A stretch of DNA of 64,000 nt from Clostridia bacterium (GTDB lineage Bacteria; Bacillota; Clostridia; Oscillospirales; CAG-272), in NCBI GenBank assembly GCA_017537175.1, contig JAFYLH010000010.1, positions 15,740-79,739 of the forward strand, written 5' to 3'. A program made the position numbers and the translations under genes. Positions 349-63,541 of this stretch are shown in pieces. Position 1 is the stretch's first letter, and the number at the start of each line of letters is the position of its first letter. The notes under the pieces were generated by a model. It ran no database searches, had not been told where the DNA came from, and saw only the letters and a program-made list of their open reading frames with translations.

Positions 349-374
349 GGATGTTGCGTGCAACATCCTTTTTT
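349..374 (+). terminator. Rho-independent terminator of the truncated upstream gene
   Basis: GGATGTTG-cgtg-CAACATCC followed by TTTTTT. Confidence 0.8.
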
Positions 375-413
375 CATCATTCACTTTTCACTGTTCACTT
401 TTCACTATTCACT
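371..413 (+). repeat. Heptad array, 6 units NTTCACT (TTTCATC ATTCACT TTTCACT GTTCACT TTTCACT ATTCACT)
   Basis: Strict 7-bp periodicity read directly; it starts at the T-run of the terminator at 349-374. Confidence 0.9.
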
Positions 414-498
414 AAAGAAACGGTCGGGATAATAAAACTTGATTTGCTGTAGTTTATCATTTTGCTGACTAAATATTATTATATTAAACCCAAATTAA

Positions 499-526
499 GT
501 GAATAGTGAATAGTAAAAGTTGAAAG
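499..526 (-). repeat. Inverted heptad array, 4 units (GTGAATA GTGAATA GTAAAAG TTGAAAG)
   Basis: GTGAATA is the reverse complement of TATTCAC; the array runs into the hairpin at 522-549. Confidence 0.85.
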
Positions 527-560
527 CAGCGGATCGCTCCGCTGCTTTCTTTTTGTTTTT
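522..560. terminator. Hairpin terminator downstream of the peptidase gene (bidirectional shape)
   Basis: GAAAGCAGCGG-atcgct-CCGCTGCTTTC flanked by T-rich runs; it lies 3 nt from the stop at 563. Confidence 0.6.
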
Positions 561-562
561 GA

Positions 563-10786: not shown

Positions 10787-10828
10787 CGGAATGCAGAATG
10801 CAGAATTAAGAGTGCAGAATGAAGGAAG
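10787..10828 (-). repeat. Heptad array, 6 units (CGGAATG CAGAATG CAGAATT AAGAGTG CAGAATG AAGGAAG); reverse complement ATTCTGC type
   Basis: 7-bp periodicity; it ends in the GAAGGAA junction to the hairpin at 10828-10857. Confidence 0.9.
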
Positions 10829-10857
10829 AAAACTGTTGCAGTAATGCAACAGTTTTC
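10828..10857. repeat. Variant of the GAAAAC...GTTTTC hairpin (GAAAACTGTTGCA-gtaa-TGCAACAGTTTTC)
   Basis: 13-bp perfect stem sharing the GAAAAC/GTTTTC ends with the GAAAACCGC family. Confidence 0.8.
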
Positions 10858-10861
10858 GACC

Positions 10862-10903
10862 ATAACTATTCTCTATTCACTATTCACTATTCATTATTCA
10901 CTA
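10862..10903 (+). repeat. Heptad array, 6 units (ATAACTA TTCTCTA TTCACTA TTCACTA TTCATTA TTCACTA)
   Basis: 7-bp periodicity between the hairpin at 10828-10857 and the terminator at 10907-10935. Confidence 0.9.
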
Positions 10904-10906
10904 AAT

Positions 10907-10935
10907 AAAATGTGCCTTCGCACATTTTATTTTTA
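10907..10935 (+). terminator. Terminator at the end of the nagA / ROK-like unit
   Basis: AAAATGTGC-cttc-GCACATTTT followed by ATTTTT. Confidence 0.7.
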
Positions 10936-13230: not shown

Positions 13231-14618
13231 TAATGCTTGAGGAGGTTCTCAATATATTCTATCTGTGCTTCAACTGATGCCACGCAGGTTCCGCCCTTAG
13301 AGATACGCTTGTTTACGCAGGTTTCAAGGTTTATCGCCTCGTAGATATCCTCCTCGAAAAGCTCGCTCATTTCCTTATACTTTTCTAAGGGAAGCTCTTC
13401 AAGAGTGGTGTGATTTTCGATACACATAGCAACGCTCTGTCCCACTATCTTGTAAGCTGTACGGAAGGGCATTCCCTTCTTAACCAGATAGTCGGCACAG
13501 TCGGTGGCGTTGATGAATCCACCGCCTGCGGCACGGTACATATTCTCTTTGTTTACCTTCATTGTTGCAAGCATGGGGGTTGCAATAGAAAGACAGGCAG
13601 AAACAGTTTCAACTGCATCAAATATGCCCTCCTTATCCTCCTGCATATCCTTGTTGTATGCAAGGGGAATACCCTTAAGCACGGTAAGTATGCCCATAAG
13701 ATCACCGTAAACACGGCCTGTCTTGCCTCTTATAAGCTCTGCCATATCGGGGTTCTTCTTCTGGGGCATGATGGAGCTGCCTGTGGAATAGCTGTCATCA
13801 AGGTCGATAAACTTAAATTCCCAGCTTGACCACATAATTATCTCCTCGCAAAGGCGGGAAAGGTGCATCATAATGATCGAGAAGCACGCAGTAAGCTCAA
13901 CACAGTAGTCACGGTCGCTTACACCGTCAAGGCTGTTTAAAGCAACACCGTCAAAGCCAAGCTCGGCTGCCACCATATCACGGTCTGTATCGTAGGTAGT
14001 ACCTGCAAGAGCACAACATCCGAGAGGAGATGTGTTCATAAGGCTCTTTGCGTTCTGTAATCTCTTGATATCACGGCTGAACATCATAGCATAAGCCATC
14101 ATATGGTGACCCAAGGTTACAGGCTGCGCCCTCTGAAGGTGAGTGTAGCCGGGCATAATTGTAGCCTTATGCTCCTTTGCGATCTCAAGAAGCGCCGACA
14201 TAAGATTGCGGGTAAGCTCTATAACCTCGTCGGTACGGGTCTTCATATACATTTTGAGATCAAGTGCGACCTGATCGTTACGGCTGCGCGCGGTATGAAG
14301 CTGCTTGCCGATGTCCCCTATACGCTTGGTCAGCTCCGCCTCAATGAACATATGTATGTCCTCGGCATTCATATCGAACTCAAGCTTTCCGTCGTCTATG
14401 TCAGCCAAAATATAGCCTAATGTTTCTATTATCTTTTCGCTTGACTCCTTGGGGATAATGCCCTTGGCACCAAGCATAGCCGCGTGTGCCATAGAGCCTG
14501 TGATATCCTCACGGTACATCTTAGAGTCAAATCTTATTGATGAGTTAAAATCGTTTGCCGCTACATCAAGCTCTTTTGCAAAGCGGCCTGCCCACATTTT
14601 TTCCATAGCTTTCTCCAT
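13230..14618 (-). CDS. argH: Argininosuccinate lyase
   Basis: MWAGRF N-terminus and the fumarate-lyase signature GSSIMPQKKNPD. The start is ambiguous among ATG 14618, 14606 and 14597; the track ORF extends to 14666. Confidence 0.9.
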   Translation of the reverse strand: MEKAMEKMWAGRFAKELDVAANDFNSSIRFDSKMYREDITGSMAHAAMLGAKGIIPKESSEKIIETLGYILADIDDGKLEFDMNAEDIHMFIEAELTKRIGDIGKQLHTARSRNDQVALDLKMYMKTRTDEVIELTRNLMSALLEIAKEHKATIMPGYTHLQRAQPVTLGHHMMAYAMMFSRDIKRLQNAKSLMNTSPLGCCALAGTTYDTDRDMVAAELGFDGVALNSLDGVSDRDYCVELTACFSIIMMHLSRLCEEIIMWSSWEFKFIDLDDSYSTGSSIMPQKKNPDMAELIRGKTGRVYGDLMGILTVLKGIPLAYNKDMQEDKEGIFDAVETVSACLSIATPMLATMKVNKENMYRAAGGGFINATDCADYLVKKGMPFRTAYKIVGQSVAMCIENHTTLEELPLEKYKEMSELFEEDIYEAINLETCVNKRISKGGTCVASVEAQIEYIENLLKH

Positions 14619-14677: not shown

Positions 14678-14699
14678 GAAAACCGCCAAAGCGGTTTTC
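14678..14699. repeat. GAAAACCGC-caaa-GCGGTTTTC hairpin (copy 1 of 5)
   Basis: Perfect 9-bp stem and 4-nt loop, located between argG and argH. Confidence 0.9.
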
Positions 14700-14738
14700 T
14701 TCCTTAATTCCTAACTCCTAACTCCTAATTTCTAATTT
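14700..14738 (+). repeat. Heptad array (TTCCTTA ATTCCTA ACTCCTA ACTCCTA ATTTCTA ATTT)
   Basis: 7-bp periodicity starting with the TTCCTTA junction directly after the hairpin. Confidence 0.9.
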
Positions 14739-14766
14739 AAAAAGCCATCGTTACCGATGGCTTTTA
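14739..14766 (-). terminator. Terminator-like hairpin immediately after argG
   Basis: AAAAGCCATCG-ttac-CGATGGCTTTT. On the minus strand it is followed by TTTTT. Confidence 0.7.
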
Positions 14767-25060: not shown

Positions 25061-25123
25061 TTGTAGCACATTTGTAATGCATTTGCAATGGTTATTTGTA
25101 GCACAATATGTATTACAATTGTA
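25061..25123. promoter_or_regulatory. Operator-like repeats in the divergent promoter region of the Cys-rich/RHH gene pair
   Basis: TTGTAGCACA occurs twice, 35 bp apart (25061-25070 and 25096-25105). There is a perfect palindrome TACAATTGTA at 25114-25123. Confidence 0.4.
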
Positions 25124-25149
25124 TCAACAGCGGTACTGTGGAGGTAAGT

Positions 25150-25323
25150 ATGAAAAAATTTAAAATTCCGTCAACTCCCCTAACGACAAACAAATCCATA
25201 AGATTTCCCAATGATATCATAGAAAAAGTTGAAAACGCAATACAAGGTAAGGAATGTACTTTTACCGCATTTGTAGTAGAAGCTGTGCGCGTTGCTTTAG
25301 AAAATTTAGAAGAAGAAGAATAG
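25150..25323 (+). CDS. Small (57 aa) ribbon-helix-helix (CopG/Arc/omega-like) DNA-binding protein
   Basis: The start at ATG 25150 follows a GGAGGTAAG RBS. KSIRFPNDIIEKVENAI (beta strand plus helix 1) and FTAFVVEAVRVALENLE (helix 2) fit the RHH fold. It is divergent from the Cys-rich gene. Confidence 0.65.
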   Translation: MKKFKIPSTPLTTNKSIRFPNDIIEKVENAIQGKECTFTAFVVEAVRVALENLEEEE

Positions 25324-25414
25324 TCGATATGCTTGCTTCGTAAGCTCGATATGTTCGTCTTACGACGAACTCGATATGTCCCTTACGGGACTCGATATGT
25401 TTTGCAAGCAAAAC
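25324..25414 (+). repeat. Array of 4 units, each TCGATAT plus a different hairpin
   Basis: The four units are TCGATAT-GCTTGC-ttc-GTAAGC, TCGATAT-GTTCGTC-ttac-GACGAAC, TCGATAT-GTCCC-ttac-GGGAC and TCGATAT-GTTTTGC-aa-GCAAAAC. Confidence 0.85.
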
Positions 25415-32725: not shown

Positions 32726-32778
32726 GGAATGCGGCCTGAGGCAAAGCCTCTTGGCACTCCCTCCGGTCGGAGTGCGGA
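32726..32778 (+). repeat. 53-nt repeat element M1, copy 1
   Basis: The sequence is GGAATGCGGCCTGAGGCAAAGCCTCTTGGCACTCCCTCCGGTCGGAGTGCGGA. It contains hairpins GAGGC-aaa-GCCTC and CTCC-ggtc-GGAG. Confidence 0.85.
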
Positions 32779-32781
32779 TCC

Positions 32782-32852
32782 ATGACACCCCGTATCTTTG
32801 ATACGGTTGGTGGAATTATGCAAGGAGTTTGCGGAACGCAAACTGTCGCAAT
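32782..32852 (+). ncRNA. 71-nt conserved structured element M2, copy 1 (candidate small structured RNA or ssDNA motif; strand not established)
   Basis: The sequence is ATGACACCCCGTATCTTTGATACGGTTGGTGGAATTATGCAAGGA-GTTTGCGgaaCGCAAAC-TGTCGCAAT. It is identical to the copy at 49759-49829 except for a 2-nt bulge and 3 compensatory pairs in the second hairpin. Confidence 0.5.
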
Positions 32853-32867
32853 GCGGAATTAAATGAA

Positions 32868-32889
32868 GAAAACCGCCGAAGCGGTTTTC
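32868..32889. repeat. GAAAACCGC-cgaa-GCGGTTTTC hairpin (copy 2 of 5)
   Basis: Perfect 9-bp stem, 15 nt after M2 copy 1. Confidence 0.9.
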
Positions 32890-32896
32890 GACCTCG

Positions 32897-32931
32897 ATTT
32901 TGCATTTTGAATTTTGCATTTTACATTCTTA
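32897..32931 (+). repeat. Heptad array (ATTTTGC ATTTTGA ATTTTGC ATTTTAC ATTCTTA)
   Basis: 7-bp periodicity, 7 nt after the hairpin. Confidence 0.85.
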
Positions 32932-33002
32932 CAACAGTTTACTTCATCGGCAAAGTCTTTTGGGGCTTTGCCGATTTTACCCTAAATTTCAGGAGACCCA
33001 TT

Positions 33003-34586
33003 ATGAAAAAGATTCTTTCTATAATACTTATCATCGCAAGTATACTTTCCGTCTTTGCTGTTACTGCATCCGCAAAGACCCAGCGCGAGCAGGAGATCAC
33101 CGTAGGCAAGGCTACACCCACAGTTGATGCCGAGATCGATATGGCAGAGGGCTGGTCAGCTCCCCTCTATATCAACACAATGTCTATGAGTAACTGCTGG
33201 TCCACCGCCCCCCAGACCACCGAGGGAGTTATGTACTTTGCATACTCCGAGGAGGGTCTCTACTATGCGGCAGACATTGTAGAGGATGTGCACGCAACCT
33301 ATATTGACGGCACACCCACCGACGGTCTTAACAGCTTTGTATACTCTACAGGCTCGGACGATATCGACTACAGCTACGGCTACAACGGTGATGTTTTTGT
33401 TCTTGCCTTTGATGTAGAGCGTATGTGGTACAACGCAGGCTATACAGGTAACAGTAGCTACAGCCCCTGGTACTGTGTAGGTCTGTTTGAGGACGGTACT
33501 GCAAAAATGTACCGTCAGATCAAGCGTAACGGCCTTGACATTACCGAAAAGGTTGAGGTTGCAGCGACCGTTACCGAAAATGGCTGGAGGCTTGAGGCAT
33601 ATATCCCCTGGGATGTTGTTATCGAGGATGTAGAGACCTGTGCCACAAGAGAGCCTGTTACATATTCAAAGGAAATGCTTGCGGCAGGCGACTACACCGT
33701 TTATGCGCAGGCAGTTTACCACGACCGTTTCTACGATAAGGAAGCAGGCGAGGTTGACACCTGGAGCCGTTATGCGGCTGTTGCAGAGTGGCAGCCTGAC
33801 GGCAGACCCGGTTCTGAGTCCTCCAGCATCAATATTCCCTGCTACGGCTTTACCCTCAATATGACAAAGCACTCCCTTGAGCACAGAGTCATAACCGAGC
33901 CTTATATCTATGATGCAGGCAAGGTTGAGCTGTGGTGTACCGAGTGCGGAGAATATGTAGATAGCTACAACAAGTCTGTTGAAAACAATGTAGGCGAGTT
34001 TGACGATGTAAAGGCAAAGCAGTGGTATTCCGAGTCTATCCGTTACTGTGCACAGCATAAGTATATGGACGGCACAGGCTACCGTCTCTTTGATGCGGAC
34101 GCTACCCTTACCCGCGAAATGTTTGTAAAGATACTCTTTAATCTCTCAAACAATTCTGAGTTTGATTTTACCGAGGATATCCCCTATACCGATGTGGTTA
34201 AGGGCTCCTGGTACGAAAATGCAGTAGGCTGGGCTCACCTTACAGGTGTTACCAGCGGTTTGAGCGAGACTACCTTTGGTGTAGGCAAGTCCATTACCCG
34301 TCAGGAGCTCGTAACTATGCTCTATAACTTCTGCAAATACCGTGAATACAACCTTGACATCAGAGAGGACGCACTTCCTCAGTTCAATGATGTAAACGAG
34401 GTTGCAAGCTGGGCATACACAGCCTTATCCTGGGCCAACGACCGCGGCGTTGTCTCCGGCGACAACCTGGGCAATGTTTTGCCCCGCAAGACCGCACAGC
34501 GAAAGGAAGCTGCAGCTATAATCGAGCGTTTTGCCGAGTATGTTGTTAAGGCTGAATATGCTACCTCTGCTATGTTTCTGTATTAA
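33003..34586 (+). CDS. Secreted cell-wall-anchored protein with an N-terminal carbohydrate-binding-like domain and three C-terminal SLH domains
   Basis: The start is moved to ATG 33003 (AGGAGA RBS, signal peptide MKKILSIILIIASILSVFAVTASA). The track ORF start at 32829 runs through non-coding repeats. There are three SLH repeats (FDDVKAKQWY..., YTDVVKGSWY..., FNDVNEVASWAY...). Confidence 0.8.
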   Translation: MKKILSIILIIASILSVFAVTASAKTQREQEITVGKATPTVDAEIDMAEGWSAPLYINTMSMSNCWSTAPQTTEGVMYFAYSEEGLYYAADIVEDVHATYIDGTPTDGLNSFVYSTGSDDIDYSYGYNGDVFVLAFDVERMWYNAGYTGNSSYSPWYCVGLFEDGTAKMYRQIKRNGLDITEKVEVAATVTENGWRLEAYIPWDVVIEDVETCATREPVTYSKEMLAAGDYTVYAQAVYHDRFYDKEAGEVDTWSRYAAVAEWQPDGRPGSESSSINIPCYGFTLNMTKHSLEHRVITEPYIYDAGKVELWCTECGEYVDSYNKSVENNVGEFDDVKAKQWYSESIRYCAQHKYMDGTGYRLFDADATLTREMFVKILFNLSNNSEFDFTEDIPYTDVVKGSWYENAVGWAHLTGVTSGLSETTFGVGKSITRQELVTMLYNFCKYREYNLDIREDALPQFNDVNEVASWAYTALSWANDRGVVSGDNLGNVLPRKTAQRKEAAAIIERFAEYVVKAEYATSAMFLY

Positions 34587-36244: not shown

Positions 36245-36268
36245 GAATATTGGGATATGGTGTAACGG
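36245..36268 (+). repeat. Duplicated 5' fragment of tRNA-Gln (24-nt direct repeat of 36333-36356)
   Basis: GAATATTGGGATATGGTGTAACGG is identical at both positions. This upstream copy continues into unrelated hairpins GCGGTC-cac-GACCGC and GATAAC-cgaatgaa-GTTATC. Confidence 0.9.
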
Positions 36269-36338
36269 GCGGTCCACGACCGCAGGGATAACCGAATGAA
36301 GTTATCTTTGTTTAACAATTATTCCGCGAACCGAATAT

Positions 36339-36412
36339 TGGGATATGGTGTAACGGCAACACACAAGACTTTGACTCTTGCTTTGTAGGTTCGAGTCCTG
36401 CTATCCCAGCCA
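36339..36412 (+). tRNA. tRNA-Gln (anticodon UUG), CCA encoded
   Basis: Hand-folded cloverleaf. The acceptor is TGGGATA/TATCCCA and the D stem is GTGT/ACAC. The anticodon arm is CAAGA-CTTTGAC-TCTTG and the T arm is GTAGG-TTCGAGT-CCTGC, with discriminator G plus CCA. A consensus promoter lies roughly 110 nt upstream and a terminator follows directly. Confidence 0.9.
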
Positions 36413-47162: not shown

Positions 47163-47196
47163 ATCAACACCCTTACCAATTCTCAATTCTTAATTC

Positions 47197-48009
47197 TTAA
47201 TTCCTAATTAGTACTATCCCCACACCGTAGGCAATAAATATAATAAGCATCAGCCAGTCGGTAAATCTTGTTTTTAAAACTGTCATTCTGGTTCTGCCCT
47301 CGCCGCCGTTATAGCAACGGCACTCCATAGCTGTAGCAAGCTCACCCGCACGCATAAATGCGGAAACAAACAGCGGAATAAGTATGGGTATGAGAGCCTT
47401 GACTCTGCGGACGAGATTTCCCTCGGTAAAGTCTGCTCCTCTTGCCTTCTGGGCATTCATTATCTTGTCCGTTTCCTCTATGAGGGTGGGTATGAAGCGC
47501 AGAGCTATAGTCATCATCATTGCAAACTCGTGCACCGGGAGCTTTATCAGCTTAAGGGGAGCAAAGAGCCTTTCTATTCCGTCTGTCAGCGCAATGGGGG
47601 ATGTGGTGTAGGATACAAGCACATTTGTTCCCATTAAGAGACAGGCAAGCCGCAGAACCATCTTGCCTGCGTGCTCAAGTCCCTCGGTATATATCCTTAT
47701 CTTCCAGAAGGACCACAGGGGCTCATTGTCGCCCGAGGTCCAGAAGATATTGAGTATTGCGGTAAAAACTATGATAAGCATAACAGCCTTAAAGCCGCTT
47801 ATCACTATCCTTAAGGGAATACGGGAGAAGAGGATGATAAGCACGGCACCCATAACCATAACAAGGTATGACCACCAGCTGTCAGCCAAAAATACCGCGG
47901 CTATATAAAGAGCGGTAAGAACTATCTTCATACGGGGGTCTGTACGGTGAAAAACCGAGTTGCCCGGAAAATACTGACCTAATGTGATATCACGAAGCAC
48001 CGCCGTCAC
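47197..48009 (-). CDS. ecfT: Energy-coupling-factor transporter transmembrane subunit
   Basis: Polytopic protein carrying the ARG...R coupling-helix motifs. It sits downstream of two ECF ATPase genes and upstream of truA, which is the canonical Firmicute order. Confidence 0.85.
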   Translation of the reverse strand: MTAVLRDITLGQYFPGNSVFHRTDPRMKIVLTALYIAAVFLADSWWSYLVMVMGAVLIILFSRIPLRIVISGFKAVMLIIVFTAILNIFWTSGDNEPLWSFWKIRIYTEGLEHAGKMVLRLACLLMGTNVLVSYTTSPIALTDGIERLFAPLKLIKLPVHEFAMMMTIALRFIPTLIEETDKIMNAQKARGADFTEGNLVRRVKALIPILIPLFVSAFMRAGELATAMECRCYNGGEGRTRMTVLKTRFTDWLMLIIFIAYGVGIVLIRN

Positions 48010-49713: not shown

Positions 49714-49758
49714 TTTGTGTAAACGCTTTTACTATATCAAATTTGCAGTTAATGATCA

Positions 49759-49829
49759 ATGACACCCCGTATCTTTGATACGGCCGGTGGAATTATGCAA
49801 GGAACTTGCCAAAGGCAAGTTGTCGCAAT
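49759..49829 (+). ncRNA. 71-nt conserved structured element M2, copy 2
   Basis: The sequence is the same as copy 1 except the bulge is CC (versus TT) and the hairpin is ACTTGCC-aaa-GGCAAGT (versus GTTTGCG-gaa-CGCAAAC). It lies between the methyltransferase gene and ecfA1, which are both on the minus strand. Confidence 0.5.
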
Positions 49830-49846
49830 AATGAATAATTGAGGTC

Positions 49847-49868
49847 GAAAACCGCTTTGGCGGTTTTC
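49847..49868. repeat. GAAAACCGC-tttg-GCGGTTTTC hairpin (copy 3 of 5; the loop is the reverse complement of caaa)
   Basis: Perfect 9-bp stem, 17 nt after M2 copy 2. Confidence 0.9.
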
Positions 49869-49910
49869 TTCCTTAACTCCTCACTCCTAACTCATAACTC
49901 CTAACTATTT
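49869..49910 (+). repeat. Heptad array (TTCCTTA ACTCCTC ACTCCTA ACTCATA ACTCCTA ACTATTT)
   Basis: 7-bp periodicity; the last unit overlaps the stop codon of the methyltransferase gene. Confidence 0.9.
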
Positions 49911-52566: not shown

Positions 52567-52599
52567 TGTGGATTTTTGTTCCCAAAAGGAACAAAAATC

Positions 52600-57823: not shown

Positions 57824-59650
57824 ATGAAAAAGACAAGAATACTTATTGCTTTGATGCTCTGTGCAGCAGCGCTGTTTGTTCTGGCGTCCTGCGGCGGCGG
57901 TTCTACCAAAGCAACCATCGACCTTACCAAGGTTGATATGTCCCTTGAGGATGCTTGTGCCAAGGTTACCGAGGCAGGCTGTACTCCCGTTGTTGTAAGC
58001 GTTTACGACGAAAAGAACGAGGACGGCGCAGTTCTTTCTATCGGTGCGTTTAGCGCAAGTGACGAAAGCGGCTTTGTTACCGTTATCGTAAACGACCTTT
58101 CCATCAAGGAAACCGTTGAGGCTCAGCCTCTTGCTCCCCGTATGCTGACTAAGGACAGCTATGAGAAGAAGATCTTTTCCAAGATCTCCTCTGACGAGAG
58201 CCTTAAGAAGACCTTTGAATCCTTCTATACCTTAAAGGATGCAGATGCTGCCTCTGAGAGAGAAATTGAGGTAATGAACCGTTCCTACCCTGTTACAAAG
58301 ACTCAGGATATCTATGTTCTTGACACAGGTGTCAGCGCAAAGGAGATCGCTACCATTGCAGGCTACATCGCAGACATGACCGACTACAGCGCAACCGATA
58401 TGTTCAATGACTATGTTGCGGTAGGTATCGTTCCCACTCCCGAAGCAGGTCTTAAGGCTGAGGTTCTTTCCGCTGACAACTGTGAGTTTGAAGAGGTTGA
58501 CGGCGGTATCAAGATCACACTCTACAAGGGTGAGGGTCAGAACATCGTTGTTCCCGCAGAGATCGACGGCAAGGCTGTTGTATCTGTAGCTGACGGTGCT
58601 ATCCCCCAGTCCAATCTCCACGCATTTACCACAGTAAGCGGTCTTAAGTACATCGAGTCAGAGGCTTGCTCCAATGCATACGGTCTTTTGAATGTTACAC
58701 TTTCCGAAACAGTTATGGAGCTGGGTAAGGACGCATTTGAAAATGTTCTCTTTACCGAGACCGACGGCAGCTTTGTTACATTTGCAGATGATATCCTTCT
58801 CTCCTACACAGGCTCTGACGCAGAGGTTACAGTTCCCGACGGCATCAGATTTGTAGGTGCAGAGGCATTCCTCGAAAATGCTGCACTCACCAAGGTTACT
58901 CTTCCCGAGGGTGTTCAGTCCATCGGTACAGCAGCCTTCAAGCTCTGTGAAAATGTAACCGAGTACAATATCCCCTCCACCACTCTTAAGGTTTGTGACG
59001 AGGCATTCTACCGCATCAGACATGTCACCGTTCTTAACATTCCCGATTCTGTTATCGAGATCGGTAACTATGCATTCTATGAGAACAACGACATCGTTGA
59101 GTTCTCCCTGGGTCAGAATGTAAAGAAGATCGGCGACAACGCCTTTGAGTATCTCCACCTTGTAACAGCTCTTGATATTCCCGCATCTGTTGAGTATCTG
59201 GGCAACGGCGCTTTCCTTAAGTGTAAGGAGATCGCAACCGTTACAGGCGGTACAGGTCTTACATTTGTAGGCGCTGATGTGTTTGGCGAGGTTAAGTGGT
59301 TTGTTGATCTTGCAGAGGATTATAACTTCCTTGCAGACAGTATCCTTGTTAAGTGCAACTTAAACGAGCCCGAAATGACCGTTCCCGCAAAAACCAAGTG
59401 TATCTCCGGTGCGTTCAACGGTAAGAAGAAGCTTACCAAGCTGGTTATCAATGACGGCTGTACCACCATCGCAATGAACTCCTTTACCGACTGTGCTAAG
59501 CTTATCGATGTAGTTATCCCCGCATCTGTTACCTACATTGATGCAGGCGCATTTGAAAAGAGCAACAGCATCACATTCCATGTTGAGGCAGGCTCTGTAG
59601 CTGAGCAGTTCTGTAAGGACAATCATTATAAGTACGACAATAATATATAA
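57824..59650 (+). CDS. Surface lipoprotein with BspA-type leucine-rich repeats
   Basis: Signal peptide with lipobox LASCGG. It carries many roughly 23-aa repeats of the IP..V..IG..AF..C..L type. Confidence 0.8.
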   Translation: MKKTRILIALMLCAAALFVLASCGGGSTKATIDLTKVDMSLEDACAKVTEAGCTPVVVSVYDEKNEDGAVLSIGAFSASDESGFVTVIVNDLSIKETVEAQPLAPRMLTKDSYEKKIFSKISSDESLKKTFESFYTLKDADAASEREIEVMNRSYPVTKTQDIYVLDTGVSAKEIATIAGYIADMTDYSATDMFNDYVAVGIVPTPEAGLKAEVLSADNCEFEEVDGGIKITLYKGEGQNIVVPAEIDGKAVVSVADGAIPQSNLHAFTTVSGLKYIESEACSNAYGLLNVTLSETVMELGKDAFENVLFTETDGSFVTFADDILLSYTGSDAEVTVPDGIRFVGAEAFLENAALTKVTLPEGVQSIGTAAFKLCENVTEYNIPSTTLKVCDEAFYRIRHVTVLNIPDSVIEIGNYAFYENNDIVEFSLGQNVKKIGDNAFEYLHLVTALDIPASVEYLGNGAFLKCKEIATVTGGTGLTFVGADVFGEVKWFVDLAEDYNFLADSILVKCNLNEPEMTVPAKTKCISGAFNGKKKLTKLVINDGCTTIAMNSFTDCAKLIDVVIPASVTYIDAGAFEKSNSITFHVEAGSVAEQFCKDNHYKYDNNI

Positions 59651-59651
59651 A

Positions 59652-59680
59652 ATAAACGCCCGCAAGGGCGTTTATTTTAA
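59652..59680 (+). terminator. Terminator of the LRR lipoprotein gene
   Basis: AAACGCCC-gcaa-GGGCGTTT followed by ATTTTA. Confidence 0.8.
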
Positions 59681-59713
59681 TTCTCAATTCTTAATTCTCA
59701 ATTCGCAATTGAA
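59679..59713 (+). repeat. Heptad array (AATTCTC AATTCTT AATTCTC AATTCGC AATTGAA)
   Basis: It starts at the terminator T-run and ends in the GAAGGAA junction to the hairpin at 59718-59739. Confidence 0.9.
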
Positions 59714-59717
59714 GGAA

Positions 59718-59739
59718 GAAAACCGCCAAGGCGGTTTTC
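59718..59739. repeat. GAAAACCGC-caag-GCGGTTTTC hairpin (copy 4 of 5)
   Basis: Perfect 9-bp stem. Confidence 0.9.
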
Positions 59740-59746
59740 AACCACA

Positions 59747-59767
59747 ATTATTCATTATTCATTACAA
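59747..59767 (+). repeat. Short heptad array (ATTATTC ATTATTC ATTACAA)
   Basis: 7-bp periodicity over 3 units. Confidence 0.6.
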
Positions 59768-59804: not shown

Positions 59805-59957
59805 TTAGTGGCAGCAGCGGTCGCCTGAATAGGTATTGCCGCAACCGTTATTGTAGCCGCAACCGCAGCCGCTGTTGCAGAGTGCAGAGAGCACGAGAAG
59901 TATGATGATCCATACCCAGATATTTCCGTCTTCAAAAATATTGCAAAGGCAGTTCAT
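59805..59957 (-). CDS. Small (50 aa) membrane-anchored Cys/Gly-rich protein; not in the supplied ORF track because it is under 60 aa
   Basis: My translation is MNCLCNIFEDGNIWVWIIILLVLSALCNSGCGCGYNNGCGNTYSGDRCCH. It has a strong RBS (GGAGGATAAAATA-ATG) and a hairpin+T-run directly after the stop. Confidence 0.6.
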   Translation of the reverse strand: MNCLCNIFEDGNIWVWIIILLVLSALCNSGCGCGYNNGCGNTYSGDRCCH

Positions 59958-60058: not shown

Positions 60059-60093
60059 TTAGTTAGGAGTTAGGAGGGAGGAGTTAGGAGTTA
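60059..60093 (-). repeat. Heptad array (TTAGTTA GGAGTTA GGAGGGA GGAGTTA GGAGTTA); reverse complement of the TAACTCC type
   Basis: 7-bp periodicity. It is followed by GAAAACCGC hairpin copy 5 and is the inverted partner of 60236-60291. Confidence 0.9.
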
Positions 60094-60098
60094 TGGTT

Positions 60099-60120
60099 GA
60101 AAACCGCCAAAGCGGTTTTC
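60099..60120. repeat. GAAAACCGC-caaa-GCGGTTTTC hairpin (copy 5 of 5)
   Basis: Perfect 9-bp stem. Confidence 0.9.
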
Positions 60121-60235
60121 TTCTAATTAATCATATAATTAAGAAACAATTAATTATCAAATATTGCATTAATACAACATAACAAAAAAACAAATTATAT
60201 AATTAATCCGAAGCTTTTCGTATAAAACGAAAAGC

Positions 60236-60291
60236 TTCCTTAACTCCTAACTCCTAACTCCTAACTCCTAACTCCTAACTCCTAACTCCTA
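60236..60291 (+). repeat. Longest heptad array: TTCCTTA + (ACTCCTA) x6 perfect + ACTGTAT
   Basis: It follows the hairpin GAAGCTTTTCG-tataaaa-CGAAAAGCTTC (60210-60238) and ends 15 nt before the -35 box of the blaI-like promoter. Confidence 0.95.
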
Positions 60292-60305
60292 ACTGTATTC
60301 CCCTC

Positions 60306-60356
60306 TTGACAAATTCATTCTAATGTGTTAGAATATCTATACTAACAGATTAGAAT
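60306..60356 (+). promoter_or_regulatory. Promoter of the blaI/blaR1-like operon with two dyad operators
   Basis: TTGACA-17 nt-TAGAAT (60306-60334). Dyad 1, ATTCTAA-tgtg-TTAGAAT (60317-60334), overlaps the -10. Dyad 2, TACTAA-caga-TTAGAA (60340-60355), is around +1. Confidence 0.6.
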
Positions 60357-60371
60357 AGCGAGGTGAAGATC

Positions 60372-60722
60372 ATGTCCGTACCAAAAATCTTTGAAAGCGA
60401 ATACCGTTTTTGTCTCATACTCTGGGAAAACGAGCCCATTTCCTCAAGGGCTTTGTCAGAGCTTTGCAACGAAAAATTAGGCTGGTCTAAGACCACTACC
60501 TACACGGTCATAAAGAGGCTGAGTGAACGGGGTGTAATCAAGAACGAAAAGACAATAGTTACCTCCCTTGTATCAAAGGAAGAGGCACAGATATCCGAAA
60601 TTGACGAGCTTATCGAAAAGAAGTTTGAAGGCTCTCTGCCCGCATTTATTGCGGCGTTTACCAAGAGAAAGCAGCTCAATGATAAGGAGATCGAGGAGAT
60701 CAGAAGGCTGATAGGTGAATAA
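60372..60722 (+). CDS. BlaI/MecI/CopY-family winged-helix transcriptional repressor
   Basis: ESEYRFCLILWENEPISSRALSE...WSKTTTYTVIKRLSERGVI is typical of the family. The start is ATG 60372 (after GAGGTGA) or GTG 60363. It is followed immediately by an M56 peptidase gene. Confidence 0.85.
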   Translation: MSVPKIFESEYRFCLILWENEPISSRALSELCNEKLGWSKTTTYTVIKRLSERGVIKNEKTIVTSLVSKEEAQISEIDELIEKKFEGSLPAFIAAFTKRKQLNDKEIEEIRRLIGE

Positions 60723-63466
60723 TGGAAAATATCTTTTTAAGCTTTCTAAATATAAGCATAACCGCGGGCTGGATAGTTCTGGCGGTAGTTATCCTGAGAT
60801 TATTACTTAAAAAAGCACCCAAGTGGATAAGCTGTCTTTTGTGGGCGGTGGTGGGAATAAGGCTGGTTCTTCCCTTTTCTATAGAGAGTATATTCAGCCT
60901 TATACCGGCCAAGACCACCGTTGACCCGAATATTGTATATCAGGCAGAGCCCACGGTAAATACCGGCATTGATGCGGTAAACTCGATGGTCAATCCTATA
61001 ATTACAAGCAGCTTTGCTCCCAATCCCGGGGACTCGGCAAATCCTCTGCAGATCTGGACATTTATTGCGGCGTGGGTATGGGTAATAGGTATAGGCTTAA
61101 TGCTTCTCTATACCCTTATAAGCTACATCGCCTTAAGGGTAAAGGTAAGAGCTGCAGTAAAGCACGAGGGTAACATCTATCAGAGCGAAAGGGTGTCCTC
61201 TCCCTTTATTTTAGGCGTTATAAGGCCGAGGATATATCTGCCCTTTAAGATATCAAAGGAGGATATAGACCATGTTGTGGCTCACGAAAGGGCGCATCTA
61301 AAGCGCTGTGACCATCTTATAAAGCCGATAGCATTTGTACTTTTGTCGGTGTATTGGTTTAACCCTCTTATGTGGGTGGCATATATTCTTCTCTGCCGTG
61401 ATATAGAGCTTGCCTGCGACGAAAGGGTCATAGGCCGTATGGAGCATACCCAAAAGCAGGAATACTCAAAGGCTCTGCTTGATCTGAGTGTAAGACGCAT
61501 AAACGTTGCAGGGTGTCCCCTTGCCTTTGGCGAGGTGGGAGTAAAGCAGCGTATAAAGAATGTAATGAACTACAAAAAGCCTGCGTTTTGGATAATAATA
61601 GCGGCTCTTATAGTATGTATTGTTGTAAGCGTATGCTTTTTGACAGATCCGGTCGATAATAATATAAAACTATACGAATTAGAAGAAGGTAGAGTTTTTA
61701 TAAATATTTACGATAATATAGATCATATAGAGATAAACGATGATGCGCTGATATATTTGAGCACCAACGATACCCAGGTGGAACTGATAAAAAACAGACT
61801 TTTTGAAATAGAGATATCTGCCTCTGAAATTTCACAAAGTCGAAGTGAGGATCGGGACAAAATCCGCAGAATATATCTGCATTACAATCAGGACGGTACA
61901 TCCATAACCTCTATATACTTCAATGCTGATTGCACACAGCTCTGGATAGATGACGGAGTAAAACCCACCTATACTTACAGAGTTATAAATCCTGAAGCTG
62001 TAATTGATATTTTTGAGGGGAATTATCTGCCGCAAGTCACCAAAGCTGACGATCCTATATCATATAACAATATAGAAAATTGTATCCTTGAGCACAACAA
62101 GGATGCTTATCTCAAGGGAGATGTGGGGGTTTGCACTTACCGTGAGCTTCTCACCGAGGGCAGAGACGGCAAGATGTATATTTATCTTATGACCCTATAC
62201 GGTGAATATACACAGAACGATGATACCGGAGATATAGAGCTTATAAGCGGCGGTGCTGCTCCCGTAATGCTGACCTTTGAGCTTGAGAACGGAGAATATA
62301 TTTGTACCGAATATTATTCAAAGGAAAAGGGCTTTGAAAAGGATTTTCCCGAAGCGGCACTAAAAGCCCGTGACTCTGTCGATATGGACGAGATGTGGGC
62401 AGAGCTTGAAAACAAGGCAACACAGCAGTTAACAAGCGTAGTTTATTATTACAGCGACGGAGAGTCTGCACTTAAATCCGCATCCCTGGTCCTCTGGGGA
62501 AAGGAAAACTTTCAGTTTTCCTATTCCTATTTATCAAGCAATCTGTGTATGGGTAAATACACCCGTGAGGGCAACAAGCTGGTGCTGCGTGAGGATGACA
62601 GCGACAAGGTATATACCTTTATAATAAATGACAGAGAGCTTGGCAAATTGGTCTTTGATGCCGGAAATTCCTCGGAATTGCCTAAGTACAAGTACGGTAC
62701 GAATGCCCAACCCGAGGTGTGTCTGCCTGACGGTGCAGTTTTTAAAACAGCGGTTAATATAGATGCAAGCTATGATGCGATCTTGGATGTAGAGATTATA
62801 GACGGAGTTGTTTATACTCTACATGTAAATTCAAAGTTAGTAACTGAAAACAAGGTCAACACCTGTGGCAGTGTTATACTGATATCATTGATCGAAACCA
62901 TAAGCGACGATGTTGCAAATAAAAGAACCGACGGTGCTTTTCTCTCCACACCTATAAATAAAGCCATAGTTGATATAGACTATCCCTACACCGAAACGGG
63001 CAGGGACGGAACCACGGTCAGCGCCTATGAATATCATCTGAAGGATGTTCCGGCAGGAACTACCGTACACGTAACTATAACAAAAGAACTCCAAGAAAGA
63101 TTAGGTCTTGAAAGTGACGTTATAGAGATCACAACGGTTGAAAACCAAGTTAATACCGAGTCGGATATCTATACCGAGGATGATATTTTATCCGCCGCAG
63201 CCGTGATAGAAAAGGATTTTGAGGCAGGCTGGCAGGGATGCGTTCTGAACGAAATATATTATGCGGGGGATGAAAAGTCAAAGGAATATCAGGATTGGGC
63301 TGACAGAAATGATGCCGATGAAGCTCTGGTGCTTCTCTCCTCCTTCTACGTTGACCAAAGCTGTCCCATAGGCTCCTTAAACAAAGGCAATATCTACTCA
63401 AACTGGATGTGGATACTTGTCAGAACAGACGGCGGCGAGTGGATACACGTAGACCATGGGTACTAA
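60722..63466 (+). CDS. BlaR1/MecR1-like M56-family membrane metalloprotease with a roughly 600-aa C-terminal ectodomain of unknown type
   Basis: 4 TM helices plus the zinc motif VAHERAHLKRCDH. I did not see a penicillin-binding SxxK sensor motif in the C-terminal part. Confidence 0.8.
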   Translation: MENIFLSFLNISITAGWIVLAVVILRLLLKKAPKWISCLLWAVVGIRLVLPFSIESIFSLIPAKTTVDPNIVYQAEPTVNTGIDAVNSMVNPIITSSFAPNPGDSANPLQIWTFIAAWVWVIGIGLMLLYTLISYIALRVKVRAAVKHEGNIYQSERVSSPFILGVIRPRIYLPFKISKEDIDHVVAHERAHLKRCDHLIKPIAFVLLSVYWFNPLMWVAYILLCRDIELACDERVIGRMEHTQKQEYSKALLDLSVRRINVAGCPLAFGEVGVKQRIKNVMNYKKPAFWIIIAALIVCIVVSVCFLTDPVDNNIKLYELEEGRVFINIYDNIDHIEINDDALIYLSTNDTQVELIKNRLFEIEISASEISQSRSEDRDKIRRIYLHYNQDGTSITSIYFNADCTQLWIDDGVKPTYTYRVINPEAVIDIFEGNYLPQVTKADDPISYNNIENCILEHNKDAYLKGDVGVCTYRELLTEGRDGKMYIYLMTLYGEYTQNDDTGDIELISGGAAPVMLTFELENGEYICTEYYSKEKGFEKDFPEAALKARDSVDMDEMWAELENKATQQLTSVVYYYSDGESALKSASLVLWGKENFQFSYSYLSSNLCMGKYTREGNKLVLREDDSDKVYTFIINDRELGKLVFDAGNSSELPKYKYGTNAQPEVCLPDGAVFKTAVNIDASYDAILDVEIIDGVVYTLHVNSKLVTENKVNTCGSVILISLIETISDDVANKRTDGAFLSTPINKAIVDIDYPYTETGRDGTTVSAYEYHLKDVPAGTTVHVTITKELQERLGLESDVIEITTVENQVNTESDIYTEDDILSAAAVIEKDFEAGWQGCVLNEIYYAGDEKSKEYQDWADRNDADEALVLLSSFYVDQSCPIGSLNKGNIYSNWMWILVRTDGGEWIHVDHGY

Positions 63467-63473
63467 TTTAACG

Positions 63474-63499
63474 GATATCCGTGCATCCGCACGGATATC
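63474..63499. repeat. 11-bp-stem hairpin preceding a heptad array
   Basis: GATATCCGTGC-atcc-GCACGGATATC, 8 nt after the blaR1-like stop. Confidence 0.8.
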
Positions 63500-63541
63500 T
63501 TCCTTAATTCTGCATTCTGCATTCTGCACTCTGCATTAAAA
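63500..63541 (+). repeat. Heptad array (TTCCTTA ATTCTGC ATTCTGC ATTCTGC ACTCTGC ATTAAAA)
   Basis: 7-bp periodicity starting with the TTCCTTA junction directly after the hairpin. Confidence 0.9.

Follow-up and report, generated by a model that had tools for sequence, protein, structure and literature searches.

Heptanucleotide arrays and dispersed hairpins in the non-coding DNA of a narrow clade of uncultured gut Clostridia

Heptad arrays in the window

The stretch of Clostridia DNA that we analysed (64,000 nucleotides, hereafter the window) includes genes for RuvA, EcfT, TruA, argininosuccinate synthase, a methyltransferase, BlaI and an M56/BlaR1-like protein. Using Tandem Repeats Finder and our own periodicity scan, we found 15 period-7 arrays among these genes, a density of one per approximately 4 kb. 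Each of the 14 arrays named in a preliminary description was recovered at its reported coordinates or a few bases off; the further array, absent from that list, consists of four ATTCTYA units between ecfT and truA (47177-47211). The arrays and hairpins are as follows, with a strand given where one is assigned.

346-371: hairpin AAAGGATGTTGC-GT-GCAACATCCTTT, between the first gene and array 376-414
376-414, +: array of five (A/T/G)TTCACT units, beginning 5 nt past hairpin 346-371
494-517, -: array, ATTCACT x2; inverted partner of 376-414, downstream of hairpin 522-549
522-549: bidirectional terminator-like hairpin of a 1226-aa gene, adjoining array 494-517
10787-10826, -: array; TTCCTTC junction, ATTCTGC ACTCTTA ATTCTGC ATTCTGC
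10828-10857: central hairpin GAAAACTGTTGCA-GTAA-TGCAACAGTTTTC, flanked on both sides by arrays
10857-10905, +: array; flank GACCATA, about five ATTCACT/ATTCTCT units, then a canonical terminator (10907-10928)
14678-14699: hairpin GAAAACCGCCAAAGCGGTTTTC, copy 1 of the five of the dispersed hairpin
14699-14745, +: array; TTCCTTA junction, ATTCCTA ACTCCTA ACTCCTA ATTTCTA; hairpin on one side, argininosuccinate synthase terminator (14740-14765) on the other
32868-32889: hairpin GAAAACCGCCGAAGCGGTTTTC, copy 2 of the dispersed hairpin
32890-32932, +: array; flank GACCTCG, about four ATTTTGC units (degenerate core, ATTT)
47177-47211: array, ATTCTCA ATTCTTA ATTCTTA ATTCCTA; no hairpin; three related species have differently tailed arrays at this site
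49833-49846, -: flank GACCTCA and the start of two ATTATTC-type units, reading outward from hairpin 49847-49868
49847-49868: hairpin GAAAACCGCTTTGGCGGTTTTC, copy 3 of the dispersed hairpin, its loop opposite in orientation to that of the other copies
49868-49909, +: array; TTCCTTA junction, ACTCCTC ACTCCTA ACTCATA ACTCCTA; touches the methyltransferase stop codon
52531-52566: array of four perfect units, ATTCTCA (+) or AATTGAG outward (-); ends at the ruvA ribosome-binding site
52571-52599: hairpin GATTTTTGTTCC-CAAAA-GGAACAAAAATC, orthologous in relatives L208 and L209, missing from L207
52600-52630, +: array; GTCCTTA junction, ATTCCGC ACTCCGC ACTCCGA
59679-59713: array, ATTCTCA ATTCTTA ATTCTCA ATTCGCA (+), or outward (-) TTCCTTC and four AATTG/AATTA units; canonical terminator (59650-59677) on one side, hairpin 59718 on the other
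59718-59739: hairpin GAAAACCGCCAAGGCGGTTTTC, copy 4 of the dispersed hairpin
59740-59767, +: flank AACCACA, ATTATTC x2
60059-60098, -: array; flank AACCATA, ACTCCTA ACTCCTC CCTCCTA ACTCCTA; inverted partner of 60236-60297
60099-60120: hairpin GAAAACCGCCAAAGCGGTTTTC, copy 5 of the dispersed hairpin
60210-60238: hairpin GAAGCTTTTCG-TATAAAA-CGAAAAGCTTC, 3' end overlapping a TTCCTTA junction
60236-60297, +: longest array; TTCCTTA junction, seven perfect ACTCCTA units, stopping 9 nt short of the blaI -35 (promoter 60306-60334)
63473-63499: hairpin GGATATCCGTGC-ATC-CGCACGGATATC, straight after the M56/BlaR1-like gene stop
63500-63541, +: array; TTCCTTA junction, ATTCTGC x3, ACTCTGC, then the terminator of the convergent gene (63543-63573)

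At a strict threshold the window held seven arrays of period 7 and none of periods 4 to 6 or 8 to 12, and dinucleotide-preserving shuffles yielded none. The periodicity reported in the preliminary description is therefore real and, at this threshold, specific to 7 bp. At a lax threshold there were 15 arrays of period 7, five of period 6, one of period 9 and none of periods 5 and 8.

The arrays are almost wholly confined to non-coding DNA, which makes up 8.1% of the window (5187 nt) and of which about 11% is array sequence. The earlier claim that all of them are intergenic stands for nearly their whole length but fails at 47177, where the array provides the ecfT stop codon and extends over the TTG called as the start of truA. 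Fourteen of the 15 are found at the end of a gene or at a hairpin rather than at a promoter; array 60236-60297 is the only one just upstream of a promoter. Relative to the flanking genes, approximately eight arrays are in sense and seven in antisense orientation, as judged by inspection.

The open reading frame at 25150-25323, proposed earlier as a ribbon-helix-helix (RHH) protein, encodes a YlcI/YnfO-family protein (NF041551, E 7.6e-11) with a weak CopG match in PDB (E 0.41). The nearest heptad array is more than 7 kb away, and upstream of the frame there is a separate set of 11-nt repeats.

Units, junctions and hairpins

A shared AYTC core with tails differing between arrays had been described, and our counts bear this out: 52 of the 72 units, with junction and frayed end units counted in, follow the phase AYTCNNN. 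The core columns are dominated by A (0.83), Y (0.94), T (0.89) and C (0.88), the next three positions are variable, and this tail is array-specific. On the strand that reads AYTC, G is nearly absent. No orientation can be assigned to the arrays at 47177, 52531 and 59679: their core is AATT, so that one strand gives AATTC and the other AATTG. The unit ATTCACT is found in only three of the 15 arrays.

About half of the arrays begin at a (T)TCCTTA or TTCCTTC junction that adjoins a hairpin, and read away from it. TCCTTA followed by three AYTCNNN units occurs five times in the window and not once in 100 shuffles. The earlier view of hairpin and array as an oriented, non-random module is supported. 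Of the assertion that five arrays open with TTCCTTA, the number stands for TCCTTA, while the junction at 52600 reads GTCCTTA. As also described, GAAGGAA, the reverse complement of the junction with one change, lies ahead of the hairpins at 10828 and 59718, and arrays are paired as inverted arms around cores.

The hairpin GAAAACCGC-N4-GCGGTTTTC is a dispersed repeat, with five copies in the window against an expectation of zero. Most of the array-linked hairpins are not canonical terminators, as a terminator scanner found no qualifying T tract on the TTCCTTA side; separate canonical terminators frequently adjoin them. As judged earlier, the family is distinct from REP/BIME, BOX, RUP, ERIC and Correia elements, and a search of the window against Rfam gave no match at arrays or hairpins. 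The hairpin module is inverted relative to an 83-nt repeat with copies at 32777 and 49754.

Turnover among relatives and occurrence in other phyla

We compared six loci syntenic across ruvCAB-ecf. The window has eight arrays there, and relatives have five (97% RuvB identity), two (96%), one (94%), none (87%) and none (81%). Among family-level relatives, 80 loci totalling 880 kb contained a single array. The array burst is thus limited to one narrow clade of uncultured gut Clostridia. Short-read assemblies break inside arrays.

Arrays turn over at orthologous sites. The relatives with 94-97% RuvB identity carry them at partly the same sites, with shifted tails and copy numbers. The ecfT-truA site, hairpin-free in all four species, holds AATTAAG, AATGCAG or AATGCGG units depending on the species. 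Between ruvC and ruvA the hairpin is kept beside GGAGTGC x3 plus AATTGAG x4, or GAGTGAA x6, or GAGAGAA, and one species is empty. Orthologous arrays are wholly gone in close relatives while the neighbouring genes are unchanged. A single site can hold different hairpin types in different species, and the 10828-type hairpin is found at a different locus in L207 and L208, with a compensated stem change. Upstream of blaI there are about eight units in the window and about five in L207. The inverted arms of this pair share an identical internal variant unit in L207; in the window, arm 60059-60098 retains that variant and the other arm now has seven perfect units.

The TCCTTA junction and the core were found together in more than 10 phyla, the junction recurring beside unrelated hairpins. 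At 120 loci from other phyla we counted 244 arrays of period 7, 25 of period 8 and at most seven of any other period. Measured over the phyla, the median distance from an array's distal end to a gene boundary is 22-35 nt, and on the hairpin side there is a spacer of 139-175 nt. A partner within 300 nt is inverted for 37% of arrays and direct for 13.5%. Orientation relative to flanking genes is mixed, with sense about equal to antisense; downstream neighbours encoded on the opposite strand outnumber the others by 63 to 36. Where two genes lie in tandem, a gene and its stop are usually followed by the purine-strand array, then (T)AAGGA and then the hairpin. No protein family recurred beside the arrays in the 120 loci.

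From genomes rich in AAYTC arrays we took 165 arrays that had not been selected by the search pattern. AYTC was present in 88 of these, against 28 after letters were permuted within units, and AAYTC in 55, against eight. Another 55 had no AYT[C/G] core, and amplified heptads unrelated to it include CAGGTAT, GCCATCA and TGCCCAA. Variation within arrays was two- to threefold lower at the core A (3.4%) and T (4.0%) than at tail position 6 (11%), A2 and T4 being the least variable positions of the unit.

Known repeat classes and possible origins

The preliminary description had named this system the strongest candidate in the window for something new; however, heptanucleotide repeats spread through the intergenic DNA of whole genomes have been reported before (PMC4679880, PMC4692102). 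The window arrays are heptanucleotide simple-sequence repeats, of the class of the cyanobacterial STRR of Calothrix and Anabaena and the repeats with 5-11 bp units. Like LSSR and STRR, they consist of tandem 7-nt units, heptamers outnumber other lengths, they are intergenic and very patchy among lineages, and slippage has been proposed. The STRR units CCCCAGT, CAACAGT and TTGGTCA contain AYTG when one of their strands is read; this would be consistent with a relaxed AYT[C/G] core and is a lead only. Documented heptamers include three Calothrix heptanucleotides (STRR), TAACTGA in Beggiatoaceae, GGGAATC in Xanthomonas and GGGGAYT in Nostoc (PMC4679880, PMC4692102); as these two papers report it, Mrazek 2007 described long simple-sequence repeats (LSSR) with units of 5-11 bp, and PMC4692102 cites that work for putting the heptamer excess down to polymerase slippage. 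What sets the window apart is its unit, (A)AYTC with a tail that varies, its origin in a clade of gut Clostridia, and its fixed TCCTTA-hairpin junction and dispersed hairpin family, the last two not described in those papers.

The TAACTGA heptamer (MacGregor 2015, PMC4679880) has been put one base from the commonest unit here, TAACTCC. Its repeats, in hundreds of sets of 2-6 copies, are likewise all intergenic and scattered over distant phyla (marine Beggiatoaceae, some Cyanobacteria, Bacteroidetes), but they have one dominant unit and lie mostly forward, directly upstream of start codons, whereas the window arrays have many tails side by side, mixed orientation and sites mainly at gene ends or hairpins. 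GGGAATC, with ATTC on its other strand as in the window core, and GGGGA(T/C)T are also intergenic; Rehm et al. 2015 describe inverted heptamer pairs, and the same intergenic sites in two Xanthomonas species with other length or sequence (PMC4692102), behaviour that the window arrays share. These heptamers are G-rich and studied as quadruplex formers, while the window arrays are nearly G-free on one strand and G4 is impossible. REP/BIME elements with RAYT resemble the window hairpins as small imperfect intergenic palindromes behind genes, in both orientations and in lineage-specific bursts; REP clusters, however, have no flanking 7-nt tandem arrays, and here we see neither a GTAG-type tetranucleotide nor a RAYT gene.

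Omega (pSM19035) reads WATCACW heptads and ParG (TP228) reads ACTC boxes, in contiguous short units, direct or inverted, with a 4-5 bp core. The preliminary description had proposed such RHH operators, a reading that is unsupported and weakened by the rarity of ATTCACT, the stop-codon and hairpin sites and the lack of linkage to the proposed RHH protein. We consider it unlikely, more generally, that the arrays are cooperative platforms for a sequence-specific protein, RHH or nucleoid-associated, whose gene has spread horizontally. The constant core with two or three free bases per unit, enriched beyond composition and least variable at A2 and T4, would suit such a reader, as would the frequent inverted pairs, the independence of orientation from transcription and a patchy, clade-specific spread by gene gain. 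For TAACTGA, MacGregor suggested a mobile protein that binds the repeats (PMC4679880), and the Nostoc heptamers have likewise been assigned a hypothetical binding partner (bioRxiv 10.1101/2022.06.06.494920). Against this, the arrays bound by omega and ParG are few, adjoin the RHH gene and occupy promoters or centromeres of partition and copy-control genes that belong to the plasmid itself. The chromosomal arrays here number about 15 in 64 kb, a density that far exceeds any known RHH regulon, have many tails, lie at gene ends and have no cognate gene: the sole RHH-like frame of the window is more than 7 kb from any array, and no protein family came up repeatedly at the arrays of the 120 loci. 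Orthologous arrays also vanish with neighbouring genes unaltered, and the unrelated units that make up one third of arrays in the same genomes point to a process tied to the period and not to a single sequence-specific reader.

A small non-autonomous mobile element (REP/BIME-like or foldback-MITE-like), moved in trans, for example by a RAYT-like Y1 transposase, and with the arms serving as its terminal inverted repeats or left behind by cleavage and rejoining, seems to us quite doubtful. It would account for the five hairpin copies, the presence or absence of modules at orthologous sites, the exchange of hairpin types between species and loci, the inversion relative to the 83-nt repeat, the excess of inverted arms and the burst in one clade. 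Y1 enzymes, however, recognise one hairpin family, and here a single junction is common to unrelated hairpins; hairpins are missing from several arrays, neither a target-site duplication nor defined ends could be made out at the compared loci, and a transposase gene is absent from the window and does not recur in the 120 loci. An action in RNA is improbable, whether as G-poor unstructured tracts curbing read-through or antisense, as Shine-Dalgarno-like purine repeats (GGAG, AAGGA) in 3' or 5' UTRs binding ribosomes or proteins, or as stabilising long stem-loops formed by inverted arms. The G-poor strand does read 5' to 3' away from the hairpin, the order in tandem gene pairs and the excess of opposite-strand neighbours would fit, and arrays 52531 and 47177 end at ribosome-binding sites, as TAACTGA does (PMC4679880). 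Yet the mixed orientation argues against a strand-specific role, the array-linked hairpins have no canonical T tract, many tails have no Shine-Dalgarno-like motif and close relatives manage without arrays at the same operon junctions. Rho loading cannot be general, since heptamer-rich cyanobacteria, to our knowledge, have no Rho.

We tentatively prefer, as a real possibility, that the arrays are products of replication error at the DNA level rather than an operator code, heptads having spread beside small GA...TC hairpins in one clade. Slipped-strand mispairing in a 7-nt register would add or remove whole units and homogenise each array, so that tails would agree within an array but not from one array or species to the next; mismatch repair largely misses loops of more than 3 nt (PMC4060949). 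Template switching at a hairpin, of the kind that corrects quasipalindromes and is well established as a source of mutation (PMC7202029), might copy an array to the opposite arm in inverted form, giving arrays that read outward on both sides. The arrays would be nearly neutral, selection merely barring them from coding sequence, with growth up to a stop codon, ribosome-binding site or promoter. That arrays have the (A)AYTC core and TCCTTA junction in common may be due partly to shared descent within a genome and partly to a seed or a preference of the process for certain sequences, for which the pyrimidine-rich 3' flank of the hairpins is an example. Counting against slippage are the low variation of the core A and T and the TCCTTA junction beside unrelated hairpins in many phyla; the excess of AYTC and AAYTC over permuted letters means that letter order matters, which pure slippage leaves unexplained, and we know of no mechanism that would single out 7 nt. 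The abrupt appearance of arrays in one clade calls for a specific genetic cause, presumably a heritable factor that switches the process on, which array-positive and array-negative sister genomes could reveal.

Heptad arrays and their hairpins in the window

Tandem Repeats Finder and a periodicity scan together identify 15 head-to-tail arrays of period 7 in the window, each with 2.4 to 7.7 copies of a 7-nt unit (heptad). The preliminary description had listed 14 arrays, and Tandem Repeats Finder reports period 7 at every position it named; the one it overlooked begins at 47177 (47178-47209 by Tandem Repeats Finder). At a strict threshold, which was also used for the shuffle control, the periodicity scan found seven arrays at period 7, none at periods 4-6 and 8-12, and none in shuffled sequence. 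At a lax threshold it found 15 at period 7, five at period 6, one at period 9, and none at periods 5 and 8. Based on gene calls from the source contig (ENA metagenome assembly ERZ28018753, k141_1372111, 157.6 kb), non-coding DNA makes up 8.1% of the window; the arrays lie almost wholly inside it and occupy about 11% of it. The earlier claim that the arrays are intergenic is thus correct for nearly all array bases, but the array at 47177 gives ecfT its stop codon and overlaps the called start of truA. Positions 47197-47211 of this array encode the final residues of ecfT as well as the stop.

Aligned in a common phase, 52 of the 72 units read AYTC, with column frequencies of 0.83 (A), 0.94 (Y), 0.89 (T) and 0.88 (C) followed by three variable tail positions, and G is nearly absent from the AYTC strand. 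AYTC lies on the + strand in nine arrays versus three, a small sample. The arrays had been described as oriented, which does not extend to those with an AATT core, for which no orientation is defined. Convergent and tandem gene pairs alike have arrays between them, with sense and antisense placements about equally numerous.

The sequence TCCTTA followed by three AYTCNNN units occurs five times in the window and not once in 100 shuffles. The junction pattern between hairpin and array is therefore real, but the proposal that five arrays share the junction TTCCTTA needs correction, because at 52600 it reads GTCCTTA. About half of the window arrays contact a hairpin. Reading outward from the hairpin, 5' to 3', one side begins with (T)TCCTTA or TTCCTTC and the other with (G/A)ACC(A/T)YR, and AYT-type units follow each kind of flank, so that several hairpins (10828, 49847, 52571 and 59718) carry two outward-reading arrays. 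One hairpin, GAAAACCGC-N4-GCGGTTTTC, recurs as a dispersed repeat (five copies in the window, zero expected); its feet read GA...TC and are flanked by TTCCTTA or (G/A)ACC(A/T)YR. The copies lie at 14678, 32868, 49847, 59718 and 60099. Their loop (CAAA/CAAG/CGAA versus TTTG) is not fixed in orientation relative to the TTCCTTA and GACC flanks, and in this respect the copies resemble flip and flop forms.

For the most part, the hairpins linked to arrays are not canonical terminators. A consensus scanner called no intrinsic terminator on the TTCCTTA side of the hairpins at 14678, 49847, 52571, 60210 and 63473, because the T tract is too poor. Separate terminators were called directly beside several arrays (522-549, 59648-59679 and 63543-63573).

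A longer repeat also accompanies two of the hairpin modules:

32777-32859 and 49754-49836, + strand: two copies of an 83-nt repeat, 84% identical, with two stem-loops, CCGTATC-TTTG-ATACGG and a second that reads GTTTGCG-GAA-CGCAAAC versus ACTTGCC-AAAG-GCAAGTT

The second stem has compensating changes between the copies. After each copy come heptad units and the GAAAACCGC hairpin, and the hairpin module is inverted in one copy relative to the other. The 83-nt repeat has no match in Rfam, and the syntenic loci of relatives lack it. A permissive Rfam search around 32650-33050 gave only chance-level matches, and a search of the whole window at the gathering threshold gave tRNA-Gln alone.

Onset and turnover among relatives

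Relatives were found by a RuvB search, and syntenic loci of 18-21 kb (LRR-proS-yfhO-ruvCAB-methyltransferase-ecfAA'T-truA) were compared with the corresponding part of the window.

Period-7 arrays in the window part and in the syntenic loci of relatives (L207 to L214).
Window part: RuvB identity 100%, 8 arrays
L207: RuvB identity 97%, 5 arrays
L208: RuvB identity 96%, 2 arrays
L209: RuvB identity 94%, 1 array
L213: RuvB identity 87%, 0 arrays
L214: RuvB identity 81%, 0 arrays

The array-positive genomes are GCA_054285205.1, GCA_054298955.1 and GCA_054284265.1, and the array-negative ones GCA_045657645.1 and ERZ15610166. A metagenome scan, which found no relative above 76% RuvB identity, yielded 80 loci (880 kb, RuvB 67-76% identical) that hold a single period-7 array, and that one is G-rich. 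Arrays are thus a recent trait, roughly at the genus level.

Within the clade the array sites are partly common, and their content differs. Between ecfT and truA the window has units of AATTAAG/AATTGAG, L207 has AATGCAG, L208 has AATGCGG and L209 has one AATGCGG-like unit. Between ruvC and ruvA the same hairpin (GATTTTTGTTCC...) is retained in the window, L208 and L209, flanked by three GGAGTGC and four AATTGAG units in the window, by six GAGTGAA-type units in L209 and by GAGAGAA-type units in L208; in L207 the spacer is just 9 bp long. The methyltransferase-ecfA spacer holds a full module in the window and contains no module in L207 and L209. At this site L208 has a GGAGTGC array (13425-13459) with another hairpin, and the array forms the 3' end and stop codon of the methyltransferase gene. 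Genes can therefore be entered by arrays, as at the ends of ecfT in the window and of the methyltransferase gene in L208. Upstream of blaI, both inverted arms of L207 contain the same odd internal unit (GGGAGGA / TCCCTCA), while in the window one arm retains this variant and the other consists of seven perfect ACTCCTA units. An array can thus be copied onto the opposite arm. The variation at these shared sites indicates that tails become uniform within each array and are exchanged for others from one species to the next, and copy numbers of orthologous arrays differ in whole units. The five tails listed previously form part of a wider family of units, since GAGAGAA / GAGTGAA arrays occur in relatives where the window has other tails. 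Purine-rich period-7 arrays of this kind lie at 2317-2355 in L207 and at 9209-9250 in L209.

At about 1640-1850 in L208, the site of the window's arrays upstream of the blaI promoter, there is a different repeat, with the motif AACTTCAC every ~25-30 nt and small hairpins between. Two Logan contigs, L211 and L212, which are independent short-read assemblies of the same organism, end (position 1) inside the 60241-60294 array. Heptad repeats fragment assemblies and mask copy-number variation. In practice, arrays break short-read assemblies, can provide a gene with its stop codon or change its end, and could serve as strain markers.

Arrays in other phyla and the class to which they belong

We scanned one genome per species for the junction pattern and obtained at least 120 loci; the matches listed include Clostridia, Bacteroidota, Patescibacteria, Cyanobacteria, Nitrospirota, Planctomycetota, Acidobacteriota and others. 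Because about 140 chance matches are expected for a 33-bit pattern in 596 Gb, the match count alone is uninformative. The matches are nevertheless real, since 54% of those listed extend to a fourth AYTC unit in register versus 0.8% by chance. Carriers include Clostridium magnum DSM 2767, which is in culture, and Haloimpatiens lingqiaonensis, whose genome is complete (NZ_CP172402.1). The listed loci (857 kb) contain 244 arrays at period 7, 25 at period 8 and at most seven at any other period. Among the 165 arrays at these loci that do not overlap the searched pattern, the consensus contains AYTC in 88 and AAYTC in 55, versus 28 and 8 after letters were permuted within units. The AYT[C/G] core is absent from 55 of the 165, and these genomes also amplify unrelated heptads. 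Expectation-maximisation alignment of unit consensus sequences across phyla gives (T)AAYTC at 5.5 bits; the procedure overfits, as permuted units reach 4.2 bits, so the cross-phylum consensus is real but modest. This is a hint that arrays across many phyla prefer the same (A)AYTC core. Variation within arrays at the listed loci is lowest at the core A (3.4%) and T (4.0%), versus 11% at tail position 6.

Across phyla, a perfect stem ends exactly at the junction in 28% of cases versus 13% of controls. An inverted partner lies within 300 nt of 37% of arrays, versus 13.5% for a direct partner. The distal end of an array is typically 22-35 nt from a gene, and orientation relative to neighbouring genes is mixed. 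No protein family recurs beside the arrays in an all-against-all BLAST of 4149 ORFs from the listed 120 loci; the families found are generic (sensor-kinase-like proteins, ABC transporters and glycosyltransferases). A phage feature was excluded, as viral contigs carry very few arrays (13 pattern matches, of which about seven are true arrays).

Tandem repeats of 7 nt that fill the intergenic DNA of some bacteria have been known for about 35 years. The window arrays belong to the heptanucleotide class of simple-sequence repeats (LSSR of 5-11 bp, or STRR-type) and show every defining feature tested: tandem units of at least about three copies, an excess of period 7, intergenic location, patchy distribution among lineages, and variation at the same locus between relatives, here in length and sequence at ecfT-truA, at ruvC-ruvA and upstream of blaI. 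They are a real, dense and dynamic repeat system, and a variant of a known, unexplained class rather than a new category. What is new is the sequence family within the class, the host group, the hairpin junction and the dispersed hairpin. The suggestion that the system had not yet been described is therefore too strong, since heptamer repeats are already in the literature (PMC4679880, PMC4692102). MacGregor reported that TAACTGA forms hundreds of intergenic sets in Beggiatoaceae, Cyanobacteria and Bacteroidetes, and also reviewed the finding of Mrazek that heptanucleotides, very sporadically distributed, are in many genomes the commonest long simple-sequence repeats (PMC4679880). Rehm et al. 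described GGGAATC in Xanthomonas and GGGGAYT in Nostoc, with inverted pairs and with repeats between the same genes in sister species that vary in length and sequence; they also cite three heptanucleotides of Calothrix (PMC4692102). A preprint on Nostoc locates repeats of (TTCAAAA)n and of (GACYAAT)n close to promoters and postulates a binding partner (bioRxiv 10.1101/2022.06.06.494920). Literature searches on unit sequences such as TAACTCC and AATTCTT gave no relevant result, and broader ones found only general heptamer-repeat papers. In the TAACTGA network of Beggiatoaceae the unit lies forward, just upstream of start codons, whereas the nearest unit in the window is TAACTCC and only about two or three window arrays abut a start codon or ribosome-binding site.

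Possible origins, and further features of the window

We tentatively favour a mutational model for the heptad arrays. Slipped-strand mispairing in a 7-nt register would add and remove units, template switching at hairpins, of the kind seen in quasipalindrome mutagenesis (PMC7202029), would copy them between arms, and selection would act only to keep arrays out of genes. Slippage loops of such size largely escape mismatch repair (PMC4060949), slippage is proposed as the origin of the heptamer excess (PMC4692102), and quasipalindrome template switching is described as a mutational route (PMC7202029). The model would account for the exclusive period, the array-specific tails, their turnover between species and the whole-unit copy differences. 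It would likewise explain why paired arms have internal variants in common, why inverted partners are over-represented, why arrays grow as far as gene boundaries and lie in either orientation, and why unrelated heptads occur in the same genomes. The fixed hairpin junction and the inverted arms with common internal variants point to template switching in particular. The (A)AYTC preference, the constant TCCTTA junction, the length of 7 nt and the sudden onset within the clade are left unaccounted for, and these four points call for a specific factor.

A heptad-binding protein, as first suggested, is a rival reading that we consider unlikely. The omega protein recognises the unit WATCACW, and ParG binds ACTC boxes spaced 8 bp apart. 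The unit ATTCACT, with one mismatch to WATCACW, is present in three of the 15 arrays, and different units make up the remaining 12; the period is 7, against the 8-bp spacing of ParG boxes. Only the 60236-60297 array is adjacent to a promoter, stopping 9 nt short of the -35 element of the blaI promoter (60306-60334), and the other 14 flank stop codons and hairpins. Membership of the omega/ParG type is thus unsupported, and the likeness appears to be one of architecture only. The candidate reader at 25150-25323, proposed as a ribbon-helix-helix protein, is an unlikely one: it belongs to the YlcI/YnfO family, has no Pfam match and only a weak CopG match in the PDB (E 0.41), lies more than 7 kb from any array with 11-nt repeats of its own upstream, and has no link to the arrays. 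Somewhat less likely again is a mobile module of REP or MITE type. The dispersed imperfect palindrome resembles REP/BIME elements, but these have a GTAG-type tetranucleotide at the hairpin foot where the window has GA...TC, and no RAYT (Y1 transposase) was seen among the window's called genes or recurred in the listed 120 loci. As regards a MITE or foldback element, inverted arms exist and modules are present or absent between species, and no target-site duplication or sharp element end was recognised at the syntenic loci of relatives. Slippage can, however, be combined with a mobile hairpin. Roles at the RNA level seem less likely still. Rho loading on G-poor tracts with YC every 7 nt was set aside, as orientation is mixed and cyanobacteria, which are rich in heptamer repeats, are not known to have Rho; mimicry of the Shine-Dalgarno or anti-Shine-Dalgarno sequence fits the ACTCCTA family alone.

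More speculatively, and with little confidence, the (A)AYT[C/G]-core arrays with the TCCTTA junction may be one cross-phylum system, created or bound by a dedicated 7-nt-register factor that is gained sporadically. Candidates for it are a protein that binds DNA or ssDNA and an altered enzyme of replication or repair. If so, the Clostridia arrays, cyanobacterial STRR, TAACTGA of Beggiatoaceae and GGGAATC of Xanthomonas would be faces of one mechanism, and array-positive and array-negative sister genomes would allow the factor to be identified. In this case from gut Clostridia the onset is very sharp (RuvB at least 94% identical with arrays, 87% without), and comparing the gene content of such sister genomes could reveal its cause and make testable why some bacteria make 7-nt repeats.

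Further features of the window are the following:

25069-25124: two 11-nt repeats upstream of the 57-aa YlcI/YnfO-like gene
25324-25412: directly after that gene, four copies of TCGATATG, with a different short hairpin after each (period 21 by Tandem Repeats Finder)
36245-36268 and 36333-36356: exact 24-nt duplication, GAATATTGGGATATGGTGTAACGG
59805-59957, - strand: small cysteine-rich ORF of 50 aa, not among the called genes, MNCLCNIFEDGNIWVWIIILLVLSALCNSGCGCGYNNGCGNTYSGDRCCH; its ribosome-binding site is good

The second GAATATTGGGATATGGTGTAACGG copy overlaps the 5' end of tRNA-Gln (36339-36412), and the duplication could be a partial tRNA copy or an attachment-site remnant. The small ORF is conserved in L207 and L208 and lies midway along the array-rich spacer that separates the LRR gene from blaI.
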